A DNA stretch of 32,000 bases. Origin: Promethearchaeia archaeon (GTDB lineage: Archaea; Asgardarchaeota; Lokiarchaeia; Sigyniarchaeales; SOKP01). Each line of letters begins with the position of its first letter. Within the stretch, counting starts at the first letter, position 1. The notes under the pieces are model-generated. The model made no database searches and was not told the origin of the DNA. It was given only the letters and a program-made list of their open reading frames with translations. The translations under genes and the position numbers were made by a program. This document shows, piece after piece, positions 423 through 10,232 of the stretch. The stretch lies in assembly GCA_046497275.1 (NCBI GenBank), contig JAWOFX010000167.1, positions 16,825 to 48,824 of the forward strand. Reading direction: 5' to 3'.

Positions 423-1808
423 TCACAAATATTTCTGATAATTCATTAAAAATAAATAATATCCAATCCTTGCATTTTCAATTGATTTTAATTGTACAAA
501 TTCATTAGCAGTATGGGCATATCCCCCTACTCCTAACCCTCCTGTTATATAGTCAGTCTCAAGGTTATTTTGAAGAATATTCAAAGGAGAGGCAGCTGCA
601 CTTATAGGCCAGAGTTCAGTAGATATATTCAATTCTTTAAAAGAATCGATAAGGCTTTTAACCAATTTAGAATCTTTAGAAACTCGTGAGCTCCTATATC
701 CTATAGTTTTAGATATATTTAAATTGGAGTTTATTAATGAAGATAATTTTTTTGCTTTTTCTTGTATTTCATCGAATATATTTTCAATTGGAACGTCATG
801 AGCAAACCTAATATCAATATTACATGAACAGGAATTAGGAACGGAATTTTTGATTCCAGTATTCAAATAACCTGATTTTAACGTGGAAATATTAAATGTG
901 GGGTCGAAAAGATACTTAAGAAAAAATTGTCTTGGATCTTGAAAAATAAAATTATTTACACCTGCTTTTTGCGCAATCTTTTCTATATTTATGCTAGATT
1001 TAAGATTTTCAATTAGCATATCCTCTTCATTATTTAATTGATAATCACTTGAGAGGGAATGAATGGATATTTGGTTATTTGAATAAAGTAAATTAATTAC
1101 TTTTATTAAATCTCTAGCTGGGTTTGGAATCACATTACTATAGGAAGAATGAACCTCTTCATTCTCGGAAGATGTTTCGATAGTGAGAGATATGATACCT
1201 TTATAACCCAGTTTTAAAACAGCTTTTCCCTCGAGATTTTGTTTTAATGCGGGATAATAAACACCATTGCATTCTTTTAATATTTTTTCATATTTTTGAA
1301 TAAAATATGGCAAGGAAGGAGAGCCAATTTCTTCCTCTCCGTCAAAAAGCAAATAAAGAGAAAATGGTAAAGCGTGTTTTGATTTTAATATTTTAATAAC
1401 ATTCAAAAAACAAATTAAAGGAGTTTTAGAATTATAAGCTCCTCTTGCAATAATACAATCCCCTAATTTAGGCAAGAAAGGCAATTTTCTTATTTTTGCT
1501 TCAAATGGAGGAGATATCCAACTCTTATTATCTTTAATTGGTTGAGTATCATACATCATATAAATTAATAAGGAAGATTCAGTATTTCCCTCTATATATG
1601 AGAGTAATATAGGATTAAATTCTCCCTTAAATTCAATAATATTCTCTGAAATTGGAGAAAGAGAAGATTTTATAAATTCAAGTGTTTTAGAGATTCCATC
1701 TGGATTATTAGATTCACTAGAAATTTGTAAAAATGGGGTTAATTCATTTTTAATAAATGATGTATTAGTTTTGGTTATTTTTTTTATTTCAATATTTTTT
1801 TCTGTCAT
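423..1808 (-). CDS. M20/M25/M40 (ArgE/DapE-like) metallo-hydrolase with an atypical metal site
   Basis: Motif order YMMYDTQP, ARGAYNSK, DGEEEIGSP, LGYKG, HSS, AHTANE matches the M20 peptidase layout. Confidence 0.85.
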   Translation of the reverse strand: MTEKNIEIKKITKTNTSFIKNELTPFLQISSESNNPDGISKTLEFIKSSLSPISENIIEFKGEFNPILLSYIEGNTESSLLIYMMYDTQPIKDNKSWISPPFEAKIRKLPFLPKLGDCIIARGAYNSKTPLICFLNVIKILKSKHALPFSLYLLFDGEEEIGSPSLPYFIQKYEKILKECNGVYYPALKQNLEGKAVLKLGYKGIISLTIETSSENEEVHSSYSNVIPNPARDLIKVINLLYSNNQISIHSLSSDYQLNNEEDMLIENLKSSINIEKIAQKAGVNNFIFQDPRQFFLKYLFDPTFNISTLKSGYLNTGIKNSVPNSCSCNIDIRFAHDVPIENIFDEIQEKAKKLSSLINSNLNISKTIGYRSSRVSKDSKLVKSLIDSFKELNISTELWPISAAASPLNILQNNLETDYITGGLGVGGYAHTANEFVQLKSIENARIGYYLFLMNYQKYL

Positions 1809-1884
1809 TTTTTTTCAATTCATTGTAAAATTAAATTGCTATTAATAATTACTCTAGATAAATATAAGCGAATCTCATAAATAT

Positions 1885-2280
1885 ATGAATGAAAAAAACT
1901 TATCAGATCCTTCAAATATTGATAGGTTGAGTCAAATAATCCAGAGTCTTAAAGAGAAGGCAAATTTATCTGGAATAATTCTATCCTATAGGGACGGTAG
2001 AACTATAGTAAAAGAGATTGAGGGAGTCCATCAGATTGATCAGTTTATACCTTTGATTGCTTCTGCATTACGTAGTGCTGAGGATTTGGGAATTACTGTT
2101 AATGGAAGTACTCTTCACAAAATAATTGCTCAATTAGAGAATTTTTCTATTATGATTTTAAAATGTAGTAGTAAAGATGTCTTTTTAACTTTAATTATCA
2201 ATGAAGCGTCTAATCTTAAACCCATTTTAGAAAATTATGAGGAACTTTCAAAAAAGATTGCAAAACATATAGAGATTTGA
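1885..2280 (+). CDS. Roadblock/LC7 (MglB-like) domain protein
   Basis: 131 aa with the roadblock pattern: helix, GIILSYRDGRTI strand pair, helix (ALIASALRSAEDLG), then three strands and a terminal helix. Confidence 0.8.
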   Translation: MNEKNLSDPSNIDRLSQIIQSLKEKANLSGIILSYRDGRTIVKEIEGVHQIDQFIPLIASALRSAEDLGITVNGSTLHKIIAQLENFSIMILKCSSKDVFLTLIINEASNLKPILENYEELSKKIAKHIEI

Positions 2281-2379
2281 AGGTATTAGTAAAATGAAGA
2301 GGAAAAATTAAATTATAACGTAATTAAATTCATATTATCATAATTAAAAATAATGTGGAAAAAAAAAAAGGGGATTTTA

Positions 2380-3261
2380 ATGAATAGAGATTTTATGAAA
2401 GATGAAACATTCAATGGAACATATCCATTTAAACCGAATTTTGAATCAATAAATGGATTTAATATGCATTATGTTGATGAAGGGAAAGGAGACCCAATCG
2501 TGTGTTTGCATGGAGAACCAACATGGAGTTATTTATATAGAAACTTCATAATCGAATTATCAAAGAATAATCGGCTAATAAGCCCAGATCAAATGGGTTT
2601 TGGCAAAAGCGATGTCCCGCAAGATAAAGAATATCGAATGGATGAACATATTGATAATCTAACAAAATTATTATTGAGGTTAGATTTAAAGAACATAACT
2701 TTAGTTATTCAAGACTGGGGCGGTCCGATTGGACTTGGGTTCGCTGTTAATAATCCAGAACGAATTAAACGTCTTGTTATCATGAATACATCTATTGGTG
2801 TAATGAGAGCTGATAAAAAGCCTTGGTATGCCACAGTTGAGGAGAAAGGAATTTATAAACAATTTATCATGAATATTGAGGGATTACTAAAAGGAGGTAT
2901 TTACAGGAAGGGGAATATTACAGATTCTATGATTAAAGCCTATACAGCACCATTTCCAAGCGAAGAATATTATATCGGAGCCTTTGCTTGGCCAAAAGAT
3001 ATTCCAGTTGGAGATTCCCATCCGAGTGCTCCGATTATGATGCATGTTCGAGAAAATTTAGATAAATTGTCCGAAAAGGATAAAATATTAATTTGGGGTA
3101 TGAAAGATCCCATCTTTCCGAAGAGAACAATTGATTGGTGGCATAAAATTTATCCAGATATAGAAACTCATAGAATTGAGAATGCTTCTCATTTTCTTCA
3201 AGAAGATGCTCCAGAAGAAATTATCAAAAATATAATGAATTTTCTAAAAAAGACACCCTAA
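2380..3261 (+). CDS. Haloalkane dehalogenase-family alpha/beta hydrolase (HLD-I-like)
   Basis: Motifs HGEPTWSYLYR, PDQMGFGKSD, nucleophile elbow QDWGG and HFLQED. ATG 2380 is preferred over 2353 because GGGGAT lies 5 nt upstream. Confidence 0.85.
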   Translation: MNRDFMKDETFNGTYPFKPNFESINGFNMHYVDEGKGDPIVCLHGEPTWSYLYRNFIIELSKNNRLISPDQMGFGKSDVPQDKEYRMDEHIDNLTKLLLRLDLKNITLVIQDWGGPIGLGFAVNNPERIKRLVIMNTSIGVMRADKKPWYATVEEKGIYKQFIMNIEGLLKGGIYRKGNITDSMIKAYTAPFPSEEYYIGAFAWPKDIPVGDSHPSAPIMMHVRENLDKLSEKDKILIWGMKDPIFPKRTIDWWHKIYPDIETHRIENASHFLQEDAPEEIIKNIMNFLKKTP

Positions 3262-5886: not shown

Positions 5887-7872
5887 CTATTTTGGTACAT
5901 CAACATCCATTTTCTTACGTTCTTCTAAAAGATCTTCGACTACTGAGGGATCTGCTAAGGTAGTGACGTTCCCAATATCCGTTCCTGCTGCGATAGCTTT
6001 CAAAACTCGTCTCATAATTTTCCCGCTTCTAGTTTTTGGTAATGCATCAGCAAATTGTACGACATCTGGTTGAAATACAGGACCAATTTCTTGTCTTACA
6101 TGCATCACAATTCCCTTTCTAAGTTCTTCTGTCTTTTCAACTCCTTCCATTAGCGTGACATACGCCCAGATAGCATTTCCCTTGATTTTATGTGGGAAAG
6201 GTGCGACAGCAGCTTCAGCTACTTTCGGATGACTTACGATGGCTGATTCGACTTCCATTGTTCCAATTCTATGTCCAGAAACCTTTATCACATCATCTAA
6301 TCGTCCTAATATCCAATAATATCCATCTTCATCCCTTCTTGCTCCATCTCCAGTATAATAATATCCCTCATATCTGCTCAAATAAGTGGATTTGAATCGT
6401 TCTGTATCACCCCAGACATCTCGAAGCATTCCTGGCCACGGTTGTGCCATGCAGAAGTATCCCCCCTCATGAGGTTCAGTCACCTCGTTCCCCTCCATAT
6501 CAAAGATAATGGGTTTAATTCCTAAGAAAGGTAAACAACAAGATCCAGGTTTAGTAGGGGTAGCCGTAGCAATAGGTGTCATTATAAACCCACCAGTTTC
6601 AGTTTGCCAGTAGGTATCAACAATAGGACAGCGTTCCTTTCCAATGACTCGATGATACCAAGTCCATGCTTCAGGATTAATAGGCTCTCCCACTGTTCCT
6701 AATACACGAAGAGAGCTTAAATCATGATTATTAACTGGATCTTCCCCAAATCTCATTAAAGCACGGATAGCGGTTGGTGCAGTATAAAATTGGGTTACTT
6801 TATGCCGCTCAACTATATCCCAGAATCGATCGACATCAGGGTATGTAGGAACACTTTCAAACATCAAGGTTGTAGCGCCATTTGCTAATGGTCCATACAC
6901 GATATAACTATGACCAGTTATCCATCCTATATCTGCCGTACAGTACCAAATATCTCCTTCTTTATAGTTGAATACGACTTTATGAGTATATGAGGTATAT
7001 AAAATATATCCTGCTGTCGTATGTTTAACACCCTTGGGTTTTCCAGTGGTTCCGCTCGTATAAAGGATAAAGAGGGTATCTTCTGAATCCATTTCTTCAC
7101 AATCACATTCTGTATCCATTCCATCAATAAAATCTTTATACCAGATATCCTTATCTGTGTGGGGTACTGGATTCCCAGTTCTCTCTACAACAATTATATT
7201 TTCGATAGTTGGCACATCATCAATAATTTGGGCTACATCATTCATTTTTGGATATGTTTTTCCTGCTCGTAAGGTCTGATCGCATGTAAATAAGAGTCTC
7301 GAATCCGAATCCTCAATTCTGTCTTTTACAGCTTCTTTTGAGAATCCACCGAATACAATAGAGTGGATAACCCCTATTCTGGAACAAGCAAGCATAATAA
7401 TAGCTAACTCTGGTATCATAGGGAGCCAAATAGTCACTCTATCTCCTTTTTCTAATCCCAATTTTTTCATACCATTTGCCACTTTGCATACTTCTTCCTT
7501 GAGCTGCTCATAGGTGAACTTTCTTACTTCCCCAGGTTCATCAGCTTCCCAGATAATTGCAATTTCATCACCTTTTCCATCCTCAATATGTCGGTCAATA
7601 CAATTATAACTTACATTTAATTTACCGCCAACAAACCATTTGCCAGGAAATAGGTCGGTTTTCTCCCAGACTTTATCATAAGGTTTGAACCAACTAATTG
7701 ATTTAGCTTGTTCATCCCAAAAACCTTCCATATCTTCGACAGATTTTTTATAAAGTTCTTTATATTCCGTTAAGGAAATTCCCGTTTTAGCATAGTCGGG
7801 ATTCAATTTAACCGGATCGAAGACACGTTTCTCTGAAAGAATGCTTTCCATTTTTTCTTCTTTTTCAGTCAT
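5887..7872 (-). CDS. acs: AMP-forming acetyl-CoA synthetase
   Basis: Motifs YTSGTTGKPKG, WYCTADIGWITGHSY, GTVGEPINP, DTYWQTETG, GRLDDVIKVSGHR and PKTRSGKIMRR. ATG 7872 is chosen over GTG 7881. Confidence 0.97.
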   Translation of the reverse strand: MTEKEEKMESILSEKRVFDPVKLNPDYAKTGISLTEYKELYKKSVEDMEGFWDEQAKSISWFKPYDKVWEKTDLFPGKWFVGGKLNVSYNCIDRHIEDGKGDEIAIIWEADEPGEVRKFTYEQLKEEVCKVANGMKKLGLEKGDRVTIWLPMIPELAIIMLACSRIGVIHSIVFGGFSKEAVKDRIEDSDSRLLFTCDQTLRAGKTYPKMNDVAQIIDDVPTIENIIVVERTGNPVPHTDKDIWYKDFIDGMDTECDCEEMDSEDTLFILYTSGTTGKPKGVKHTTAGYILYTSYTHKVVFNYKEGDIWYCTADIGWITGHSYIVYGPLANGATTLMFESVPTYPDVDRFWDIVERHKVTQFYTAPTAIRALMRFGEDPVNNHDLSSLRVLGTVGEPINPEAWTWYHRVIGKERCPIVDTYWQTETGGFIMTPIATATPTKPGSCCLPFLGIKPIIFDMEGNEVTEPHEGGYFCMAQPWPGMLRDVWGDTERFKSTYLSRYEGYYYTGDGARRDEDGYYWILGRLDDVIKVSGHRIGTMEVESAIVSHPKVAEAAVAPFPHKIKGNAIWAYVTLMEGVEKTEELRKGIVMHVRQEIGPVFQPDVVQFADALPKTRSGKIMRRVLKAIAAGTDIGNVTTLADPSVVEDLLEERKKMDVDVPK

Positions 7873-8145
7873 TTTTTTCACAAGATTTATAGTAAAGAAT
7901 AATTAACACTATAGAAAAGATTAATATTAGATAAAATAATAAATTTTTTACGAACAATTTTTATGTGATCATAAGTCGAAATTATGAAATTCAAACATAA
8001 TGTTTAGATTTTCTACAATCACGCATTCAGAATCATAAAATCTTCTAATAAATCAATATTGCATATAAAAAATTATTAAAGAAAAATGAAGATAGTAACA
8101 TTTATCAAGTATCCAAATTATTCAAAATAATTTCGATCATAAAAA

Positions 8146-10044
8146 ATGGAAAATTTAGAGAAGTTAGATTCAAATTGGAGAAAAAAGTGGAGCGATAAAG
8201 AAATCGACATTGAACATGCTATTAAAAAGATCATACCAGGTAATAGAGTATTTATTGATTCTGGATGTTCCGAACCACAAGCCCTCACTAAAGAATTAAT
8301 TAGACAATCAGAACGTTTAGTTGATACGGAAATAATTCATTTTCTTACCATCGGCCCGAATAAATACTTTCAAACAGATAAACGAGAGGATGTTTTTAGA
8401 CATAATGCCCTTTTTATTGGTGATACCTTGCGAGAGGAGGTAAATAGTGGACAAGCAGATTACACCCCGATTAATGTGAGTGAAATACCGAAATTGTTTC
8501 TATCCGGAAGAAAATATATTGATGTCGCGTTAATTCAAGTTTCTCTTCCAGATCAATATGGTTTTTGTTCATTCGGGATAAATGTTGATATTGCAAAACC
8601 AATTGCTCAGTCAGCCTATTTGACGATAGCAGAAATAAATCCCCAAATGCCAAGGACATTGGGGAATAGTTTCATTCATTTAAAAGAAATAGATTATTTT
8701 ATTTATCACGATCATCCTCTCTTAAAATTCCATTTTGATGAACCCACTAAAGTTGTAAAAAAAATAGGGAAAAATCTTTCAAATTTAGTACAAGATAAAT
8801 CAACGATACATATAGGCTTTGGAGATTTACCTCATAATATTCTGAAATACTTATCAAAGAAGAAAGATTTAGGAATGCACTCTCATTATGTAACAGATGC
8901 AATAATTCCGCTGATTGAGAATGGAGTTTTAACTTGCAGGAAGAAAAATTTTCATCCTGAAAAGATCGTTACGAGTTTTGCACTCGGTTCAAGAAAATTA
9001 TATGATTTTGTCGATAATAATCCTTATATCGAATTTTATCCTTCGGATTATGTATGTAATCCGAAATATATTAGTAAAAATAAAAATATGATATCTATTA
9101 ATTCAGCTCGTCAAATAGATTTAACGGGACAAGTCAATGCATCTACAGAAGGATATTCCTTTTATTCTGGATTTGGAGAGACCGTTGATTTTATTAGGGG
9201 AGCAGCTTTTTCAGAGGGTGGAAAACCAATCATTATTATGCCTTCCACTACAAGAGATGAAAAGCAATCAAGAATAGTTTCTCATTTGGATGAAGGAGCA
9301 GGAATCTTACTATCAAGGGGTGATGTTCATTATGTCGTAACTGAATGGGGTGTTGCATATTTACACGGAAAATCTATTAGAGAAAGAGTAATTGAGTTGA
9401 TTAGTATTGCGCATCCCAAATTTAGGGAACAATTATTGCATGAGGCAAAATATTTAAATTATATTTATTCTGATCAAATGCTTCCGGTGGATGAGAATGG
9501 TTTTATAGTAAGATATCCAAAAGAATATGAAACTATCTTTAAAACTAAGAACGGAGAGGAAATTTCTATAAGACCATTAAAGACTACTGATGAAGAGATG
9601 CTTAAAGAATTATATTATTCTCTAAATGAAAGAGATCGATACTTAAGGTTTTTCGAAGTTAGAAATGAATTTGCTCATACCAAAACCCAAAATGAAGTCA
9701 ATATTGATTATAATGATATTTTCTCAATAGGGGCATTTATTGGCGAGATTGGGAATGAGAAAATGATTGGAAATGCTACATATTATTATAATCCTAATAA
9801 AAACTCAGCAGAGTTTAGTTTTGTGGTACATAAAGATTGGAGGGGTGTGGGATTAGGCTCATATCTTTATAATTATATGATAATAATCGCGAAGGAGAAA
9901 GGAATCCAATCCTTCTACGGAAATATTCATATCGAAAATAAGGGGACTGTACATGTTATAAAAAAGGCAGGGAAAGTGAGGATAACGCCCCCAGAACTTG
10001 GAGGAAAAGAACTTTTTTATGAAGTTGATTTTGAGGAAGAATAA
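8146..10044 (+). CDS. Acetyl-CoA hydrolase/CoA-transferase-fold domain fused to a C-terminal Pat-type GNAT acetyltransferase
   Basis: The N-terminal ~440 aa follow the family I (Cat2/AbfT-like) CoA-transferase pattern (SINSARQIDLTGQV, VDFIRGA, DVHYVVTEWG, IAHPKFRE). The C-terminal part has RYLRFF and AEFSFVVHKDWRGVGLG GNAT motifs. Confidence 0.9.
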   Translation: MENLEKLDSNWRKKWSDKEIDIEHAIKKIIPGNRVFIDSGCSEPQALTKELIRQSERLVDTEIIHFLTIGPNKYFQTDKREDVFRHNALFIGDTLREEVNSGQADYTPINVSEIPKLFLSGRKYIDVALIQVSLPDQYGFCSFGINVDIAKPIAQSAYLTIAEINPQMPRTLGNSFIHLKEIDYFIYHDHPLLKFHFDEPTKVVKKIGKNLSNLVQDKSTIHIGFGDLPHNILKYLSKKKDLGMHSHYVTDAIIPLIENGVLTCRKKNFHPEKIVTSFALGSRKLYDFVDNNPYIEFYPSDYVCNPKYISKNKNMISINSARQIDLTGQVNASTEGYSFYSGFGETVDFIRGAAFSEGGKPIIIMPSTTRDEKQSRIVSHLDEGAGILLSRGDVHYVVTEWGVAYLHGKSIRERVIELISIAHPKFREQLLHEAKYLNYIYSDQMLPVDENGFIVRYPKEYETIFKTKNGEEISIRPLKTTDEEMLKELYYSLNERDRYLRFFEVRNEFAHTKTQNEVNIDYNDIFSIGAFIGEIGNEKMIGNATYYYNPNKNSAEFSFVVHKDWRGVGLGSYLYNYMIIIAKEKGIQSFYGNIHIENKGTVHVIKKAGKVRITPPELGGKELFYEVDFEEE

Positions 10045-10232
10045 ATTTCTACTTATTTTTTATGTAAATATTTAATATTTTATATTTTACAAAAGAGAAT
10101 TTGATATAATTCCTATTTATATTAGTCATAAATTTAAAACAAAAACCTGACCAAATGTAATTTTAACAAGAATTTTTCAGTTCTCTTAAATTTTTTAAAA
10201 ATAATTTTTAAATATATTTTAAGATTGATTTC

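Follow-up and report, generated by a model that had tools for sequence, protein, structure and literature searches.

What does a coenzyme A (CoA)-transferase-like protein do when a histidine occupies the place of its catalytic glutamate? The question is raised by a protein of 632 amino acids (aa) encoded in a 32,000-nucleotide stretch of DNA from a Promethearchaeia archaeon (Lokiarchaeia, Sigyniarchaeales; GenBank assembly GCA_046497275.1, contig JAWOFX010000167.1, positions 16,825 to 48,824), the whole of which is here called the window. The protein joins a remodelled AbfT-like CoA-transferase domain to a GNAT domain resembling that of the lysine acetyltransferase Pat, and its gene stands next to a gene for acetyl-CoA synthetase (Acs). 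Its sequence and the analogy with Pat suggest that it is probably a Pat-like lysine acetyltransferase of Acs, in which the CoA-transferase domain would no longer transfer CoA and would act as a regulatory or scaffold module. This identification was decided by the GNAT fusion, the Acs neighbour and an intact paralogue in the same genome, none of which had been weighed in a preliminary description of this DNA. Proteins of the window's type, GNAT-fused and with the replaced site, are labelled H-type in the following.

Active-site replacements in the CoA-transferase-like domain

Pfam searches with the 632-aa sequence detected AcetylCoA_hydro (PF02550) at residues 10-190 (E-value 1e-27), AcetylCoA_hyd_C (PF13336) at 281-434 (E-value 3e-61) and GNAT (PF00583) at 475-609. 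The N-terminal module shows the two-domain alpha/beta fold of the acetyl-CoA hydrolase/transferase family by both Pfam and Foldseek. An AlphaFold2 (AF2) model of the fusion protein, calculated from an 86-sequence alignment, had a predicted local distance difference test score (pLDDT) of 90.7 and a predicted template modelling score (pTM) of 0.88. Its best match to Shewanella AbfT with CoA (2oas_A) gave a template modelling (TM) score of 0.95 and a root-mean-square deviation (rmsd) of 1.5 Å.

The preliminary description had placed His247 at the position of the catalytic Glu, Glu345 at the second Gly of the GG loop and the motif HIGFGDLP at QLGIGAIP. Alignments with five solved AbfT-type CoA-transferases (9vag, 3eh7, 2oas, 3d3u and 3gk7; phmmer E-values 1e-115 to 1e-91) bore out all three assignments, pairing DLGMHSHY with DLG(V/I)HTEM, SGFGETVDF with SG(F/T/V)GGQ(L/V/M)DF and HIGFGDLP with (L)Q(M/L)GIGAIP. 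The exchange of Glu for His is also common to the orthologues and no peculiarity of this assembly. Of the 120 closest homologues, all GNAT-fused and 69-97% identical, about 94% have His at position 247, with Tyr, Gln or Leu as rare alternatives, and every one has Glu or Asp at position 345; the nearest homologues carry the source names Promethearchaeota or Lokiarchaeota. Judged by this conservation, chance or an assembly error is ruled out as the source of the replacements.

A comparison of 70 canonical family members (catalytic Glu and GG loop present) with 121 H-type proteins covered the 67 positions that are conserved in at least 85% of the canonical set. The H-type proteins have kept 59 of these positions, vary at three and have consistently replaced the remaining five: Gly218 by Lys (95%), Gln222 by His (99%), Glu247 by His (94%), Asn304 by Cys (99%, against Asn in 89% of the canonical members) and Gly345 by Glu (56%) or Asp (44%). 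Positions 218 and 304 add two family-invariant positions to those named in the preliminary description. His245, two residues before the replaced Glu, is invariant throughout the family.

The roles of these positions can be read from the class I enzyme AarC, whose nucleophile is Glu294. Its external oxyanion hole is formed by the backbone NH of Gly388, a strictly conserved residue of class I enzymes, and its internal oxyanion hole by the carboxamide of Asn347, which also buttresses Glu294 (PMC4876117). Gln267, Glu294 and Gly388 each lie about 4 Å from the end of the bound CoA analogue; Gln267 and Val270 line the CoA thiol site, and Val270, part of a G-V-G loop, contacts the CoA thiolate (PMC4876117). 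In RipA the G-V-G loop beside the catalytic Glu gates the acyl-CoA cleft (PMC3180442). We assigned residues 222, 247, 304 and 345 to AarC Gln267, Glu294, Asn347 and Gly388 by sequence offset only (residues 242-430 corresponding to AarC 289-466). If this mapping holds, the whole reaction centre has been exchanged in an otherwise intact fold. Four of the five replaced positions would then correspond to the nucleophile, both oxyanion-hole elements and the Gln of the CoA-thiol pocket, so that the transferase centre appears to be gone.

The domain still resembles the 4-hydroxybutyrate/butyryl-CoA:acetate CoA-transferases of the AbfT/Cat2 type (3gk7, 2oas, 3eh7 and RipA 3qli) with TM scores of 0.91-0.95 and 34-42% identity. 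It differs from them in having a GNAT domain added at its C-terminus and in lacking the Gln of QxGxG and the features that define these enzymes as class I CoA-transferases, namely the catalytic Glu, the second Gly of the GG loop and the internal oxyanion-hole Asn, the last by offset-based equivalence.

Sequence divergence indicates that the domain is maintained under purifying selection and is not decaying, because it evolves as slowly as the corresponding domain of the intact fused paralogue in the same genomes. Over 21 genome pairs, drawn from seven genomes with both genes, the mean identity was 81.0% for the H-type CoA-transferase-like domain versus 80.5% for the domain of the paralogue. 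One suggestion of the preliminary description, a dead enzyme that has been retained, is thereby supported as far as sequence can tell: the nucleophile is gone, as are the residues that map to the two oxyanion-hole elements, the domain is conserved and its fold is predicted with confidence.

The H-type orthologues fall into two sub-clades, one with Phe225, Asp227 and Glu345 and the other with Asn225, Tyr227 and Asp345, all near the old active site. The gating loop and the GG loop may here compensate for each other's changes where they touch, or the coupling may merely reflect shared ancestry.

The acetyltransferase domain and its association with Acs

The best relatives of the GNAT domain in the PDB are E. 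coli PatZ (9it0/9isq; E-value 4e-17), Sulfolobus Pat (3f8k), the GNAT domain of S. lividans PatA (4nxy/4u5y) and M. tuberculosis Pat (4orf), all of them protein lysine acetyltransferases for acyl-CoA synthetases or similar targets. Foldseek superposed the modelled domain on the GNAT domains of PatZ and S. lividans PatA with an rmsd of 1.7-1.8 Å, and on 4u5y, which holds the S. lividans GNAT together with the C-terminal domain of Acs, with a TM score of 0.92. Glu556 pairs with the residue numbered 809 of the PatZ chain 9it0, which we take to be the catalytic Glu of Pat. The acetyl-CoA P-loop (R/Q-x-x-G-x-G/A) is intact as RGVGLG.

The neighbouring Acs keeps Lys621 in a PKTRSGK motif (positions 6019-6021) and is the sole close Acs of the genome, the next match being 30% identical. 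Acs lies upstream of and divergent from the H-type gene in all loci with enough flanking sequence (about 16 loci). Counted in species-level genomes, 12 of 13 H-type loci have Acs as the adjacent gene, 11 of them in divergent and one in convergent orientation, and the 13th locus has only 283 bp of upstream flank. The pairing survives the insertion of one to three genes, for example of a TPR-TIR gene. The latter, found in one relative at 7026-9386 of locus L038 (genome G150), encodes a 787-aa TPR and TIR protein between acs and the fusion gene and has the look of a defence-type insertion.

Some fusions outside the H-type show the same neighbour, including intact ones in which the canonical transferase site is kept. 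In the Asgard family f7 Acs is divergent and upstream of the intact fused gene in 14 of 15 loci, in family f16 it is convergent and downstream, and an Acs with 50% identity or more to that of the window lies inside 5 kb of about 8 of 60 bacterial fused genes. The linkage to Acs therefore predates the remodelling of the transferase site. Five SIR2 deacetylase genes are present in the window's genome. On another contig of this genome (C7), one SIR2 gene (438-971) lies about 600 bp from a gene for an adenosine monophosphate (AMP)-forming acyl-CoA ligase (1560-3104) on the same strand, possibly a second pair for the control of acylation.

Judged by motif and gene order, the neighbouring Acs is most likely the target of the GNAT domain, acetylated at Lys621. 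Acetylation by the intact C-terminal GNAT would switch Acs off, and the sirtuins of the same genome could undo it; reversible lysine acetylation of Acs is a textbook metabolic switch in bacteria. The pseudo-transferase domain would presumably bind CoA, acyl-CoA or another ligand and tune the GNAT, serving as a regulatory or oligomerisation module by analogy with Pat/PatZ. There, the inactive acyl-CoA-synthetase-like domain binds acetyl-CoA, gives cooperativity and helps to form the Acs pocket (PMC12184503, PMC8556138).

With the Pat enzymes of types I and II (S. enterica Pat, E. coli PatZ/YfiQ and S. lividans PatA) the H-type protein shares a homologous GNAT with the aligned Glu and the R-x-x-G-x-G loop, and the fusion of this GNAT to a large domain that derives from a CoA enzyme, inactive in Pat and apparently so in the H-type protein. 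It also shares an Acs with the PKTRSGK Lys, the linkage of the genes and sirtuins in the genome. In contrast to these enzymes, its accessory domain has the family I CoA-transferase fold and is not of the nucleoside diphosphate (NDP)-forming synthetase-like kind, and its length is about 630 residues instead of about 890.

The features of the locus are listed in Table 1. Further genes near the fusion gene encode a PAP2 phosphatase, a Rag/Arf-like GTPase and TFIIB, and the G+C content is 29%, a combination that points to an Asgard genome of the Lokiarchaeon type. In the relatives L038-L046 a gene for a PHP-domain protein of 264-270 aa lies between the fusion and PAP2 genes; it is absent from the corresponding interval of the window (10045-10232).

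Table 1. Features of the fusion gene and its surroundings, with positions counted from the first nucleotide of the window
Feature	Position	Strand	Basis
AMP-forming acetyl-CoA synthetase (Acs), 664 aa, probable substrate	5887..7881	-	Pfam ACAS_N + AMP-binding + AMP-binding_C
Divergent A+T-rich intergenic region between fusion gene and acs, 264 bp	7882..8145	.	sequence
H-type fusion gene, 632 aa: remodelled AbfT-like CoA-transferase domain and Pat-like GNAT	8146..10044	+	translation of open reading frame, Pfam, AF2
CoA-transferase-like domain, residues 10-434	8173..9447	+	Pfam, PDB phmmer, Foldseek
Lys218 (8797-8799), His222 (8809-8811) and G-F-G loop of HIGFGDLP (residues 222-229); canonical: Gly, Gln, G-(I/V)-G	8797..8832	+	
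His245-Ser246-His247; His247 = CAT, 8884-8886, at catalytic Glu position; LGMHSHY = residues 242-248	8878..8886	+	alignments, codon
Cys304 (TGT), at family-conserved Asn of YVNDP; counterpart of AarC Asn347 by offset	9055..9057	+	
SGFGETVDF loop, residues 341-349; Glu345 = GAG, 9178-9180, at second Gly of GG loop; counterpart of AarC Gly388 by offset	9166..9192	+	
Pat-type GNAT domain, residues 475-609; Glu556, 9811-9813; RGVGLG (acetyl-CoA P-loop), residues 566-571, 9841-9858	9568..9972	+	Pfam, PDB, Foldseek

Origin of the rebuilt site and alternative functions

A second CoA-transferase-GNAT gene in the window's genome (G000) is fully canonical, with the motifs QMGIGQIP, DLGVHSEVF and SGIGGQADF. 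It is split over the ends of two contigs, C97 (L001, 625-2019) and C16 (L003, 1-738). The two ends overlap in their text (VIPRHEVHYVVTEWG...KLPKSV), and the contigs probably join at this gene. A search inside 6 kb for a metabolic partner of the family's intact paralogue revealed no Acs, only a HhH-GPD glycosylase, a radical SAM enzyme and peptidases.

In a set of 151 genomes from the phylum, H-type genes were confined to the window's family (genera g1, g2, g5 and g6), and nearly all of the genomes that hold one also hold the intact paralogue, often together with a stand-alone AbfT-like gene. The transferase-domain tree unites the H-type proteins with the intact paralogues and with those of a sister family in one order-level clade (Shimodaira-Hasegawa-like approximate likelihood ratio test, SH-aLRT, 100). 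The H-type proteins are monophyletic (SH-aLRT 98), with one divergent sister, P0122 (Lys218, His222, Phe247, Ser304, Asp345). Since the H-type clade is nested in the order-level clade with the intact paralogues, the remodelling is younger than a duplication that took place inside the order.

In genus g4 of the window's family the H-type gene is missing, and a stand-alone GNAT gene of 193 codons lies divergent from Acs at a distance of 201 bp. This GNAT falls inside the H-type GNAT clade with an SH-aLRT of 98, to the exclusion of the fused P0122; the transferase-like domain has thus been deleted in g4 and the pair of GNAT and Acs kept.

We suggest the following course of events. The N-terminal module would be a former family I CoA-transferase of the AbfT/Cat2 type that lost CoA transfer. 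After the duplication in the Lokiarchaeal order, one copy would have been relocated in the genome with its Glu, GG loop and Asn preserved. In the copy left beside acs, the centre would have been rebuilt to Lys218, His222, His247, Cys304 and Glu/Asp345, with the rest of the fold remaining under normal purifying selection.

The rebuilt site itself invites other explanations. Lys218, His222, His245, His247, Cys304 and Glu/Asp345 might form a sensor for a metal, for redox state or for the CoA thiol, or a Cys-His-acid triad acylated on Cys304, which would gate the GNAT. All five replacements converge on the old reaction centre, they are 94-99% conserved with position 345 always Glu or Asp, metal sites and triads are typically built from His, Cys and carboxylate, and the domain evolves no faster than that of the active paralogue. 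We nevertheless regard such a site as unlikely: the sister lineage P0122 has Phe247 and Ser304, about 6% of the orthologues have Tyr, Gln or Leu at 247, and Cys304 stands beside an intact Glu247 in 7 of 87 family members. A switch of the nucleophile to Cys304 coupled with the loss of Glu247 was rejected on this last count, and an independent-pairs analysis found no association between the two.

The domain could also be a purely structural remnant that only dimerises or docks Acs and whose pocket binds nothing. AbfT-type enzymes are tight homodimers (PMC3180442), the regulatory domain of PatZ directly shapes the Acs-binding pocket (PMC12184503), and polar replacements could simply fill the pocket. 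The specific conservation of five new pocket residues would be unexpected, however, if the pocket were irrelevant, and genus g4 manages without the domain, which makes this explanation improbable.

The preliminary description had also proposed that the catalytic carboxylate has migrated to Glu345. The protein would then still be a CoA-transferase or acyl-CoA hydrolase, with Glu/Asp345 as nucleophile or general base and His247 assisting. In AarC the alpha carbon of Gly388 is about 4 Å away from where the CoA analogue ends (PMC4876117), close enough for a side chain at this position to reach the thioester. The acid at 345 is invariant in the H-type clade, and in the wider family it occurs only in sequences without Glu247 (five versus none), a pattern that reflects just four changes on the tree, too few for a test of co-variation. 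Against a migrated carboxylate, the residue replaced at 345 is the very one, strictly conserved among class I enzymes, that forms the external oxyanion hole. The Asn of the internal oxyanion hole that buttresses the nucleophile is lost as well (N304C), and the entire domain is dispensable in g4. Position 345 alternates between Glu and Asp, although an exchange of a nucleophilic Glu for Asp can yield a hydrolase. Taken together, these points make a migrated carboxylate improbable.

In Thermus thermophilus the CoA-transferase TT_C1083 is acetylated by the GNAT TT_C1711 (bioRxiv 10.1101/2025.10.31.685773), so that there, too, an AbfT-type CoA-transferase and a GNAT lysine acetyltransferase are functionally coupled. 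Unlike the window's protein, which is fused and has lost its transferase site, the Thermus pair consists of two separate proteins with an active and regulated transferase. A GNAT regulating its own transferase domain may explain the origin of the intact fusions, but gives no account of a copy without a transferase site.

Some points weigh against an Acs acetyltransferase with a pseudo-transferase module, the reading we prefer. The mapping onto AarC was made by offset, and synteny inside one archaeal family partly reflects shared ancestry. The new residues (two His, Cys, an acid and Lys) combine chemical reactivity with high conservation, as would also be expected of a metal site or of a new chemistry. 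By analogy with the Thermus pair, the fusion could have begun as an enzyme joined to its own regulator.

The wider fusion family and its significance

A search of species-representative genomes with a query alignment of 11 sequences revealed at least 594 stretches that encode a relative of the query, and the best 80 loci are nearly all fusions. The fusions range over Thermodesulfobacteriota, Planctomycetota, Anaerolineae, Myxococcota, Acidobacteriota, Spirochaetota, Thermoplasmata, Methanobacteriota and Promethearchaeota, and the cultured Promethearchaeum syntrophicum is among their holders. The intact fusions (the paralogue on C97/C16, families f7 and f16, and many bacterial phyla) have the same architecture and linker as the window's protein, 40-55% identity to it and, in some cases, a neighbouring Acs. 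They have kept the Glu, the GG loop and the Asn, whereas the window's protein belongs to the clade with the rebuilt site; by their sequences, the intact fusions may be bifunctional.

At least 20 losses of the catalytic Glu were counted on a tree of 136 family representatives, and 31 of the 72 fused representatives are without it. Such recurrent loss is in keeping with a transferase chemistry that the family can often do without. A phylogenetically controlled comparison of Glu loss between fused and stand-alone proteins on the representatives' tree had too few informative pairs.

Other variants of the site were observed in the family. Fourteen of the 72 fused representatives have Asp at the position of the catalytic Glu (motif HTD). 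A change from Glu to Asp turns glutaconate CoA-transferase into a hydrolase, and by their motif the HTD members may be thioesterase-GNAT fusions. A stand-alone AbfT-like subfamily (P0208, P0215, P0231, P0235, P0238, P0242, P0246, P0248, P0249, P0254, P0257, P0258 and others) has Gly for the catalytic Glu (HSG) and His for Asn304 with GGQ kept, and may represent a different active-site solution or another group of pseudoenzymes. Five proteins (P0126, P0130, P0160, P0170 and P0225) are about 960-1010 residues long, their CoA-transferase-GNAT core being preceded or followed by an extension of 330 aa.

A literature search revealed no experimental study of a CoA-transferase-GNAT fusion. In NCBIfam no curated model covers the fusion and none reaches its cut-off; the protein scores 254 bits, far short of the 675 required by the equivalog model. 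The only names that it bears in its sources are "GNAT family N-acetyltransferase" and "acyl-CoA hydrolase/GNAT". The acetyltransferase types I-V carry NDP-forming synthetase-like, cyclic AMP (cAMP), ACT or nicotinamide adenine dinucleotide phosphate (NADP+) modules, and a CoA-transferase module is absent from them; a Pat-type acetyltransferase with a pseudo-CoA-transferase module is thus a design missing from these classifications (PMC8556138, PMC12184503).

What sets the H-type protein apart is that a different CoA-handling enzyme fold stands beside the GNAT in place of the usual regulatory module. To our knowledge, all described regulated acetyltransferases use an acyl-CoA-synthetase-like, cAMP, ACT or NADP+ module. 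One archaeal order holds a graded series of intact transferase-GNAT, rebuilt site-GNAT and GNAT alone, which lets both the contribution of the accessory domain and the path from enzyme to pseudoenzyme be tested directly. Should the rebuilt pocket prove to be a sensor after all, it would represent the conversion of a pseudoenzyme into a device that reads the CoA/acyl-CoA or redox state and gates the acetylation of Acs, and hence, in the archaeal group closest to eukaryotes, a class of regulatory module that is new among prokaryotic lysine acetyltransferases. The fusion family spans hundreds of bacterial and archaeal species, and the H-type protein bears on the acetate and acetyl-CoA metabolism of Lokiarchaeia, syntrophic fermenters relevant to eukaryogenesis.

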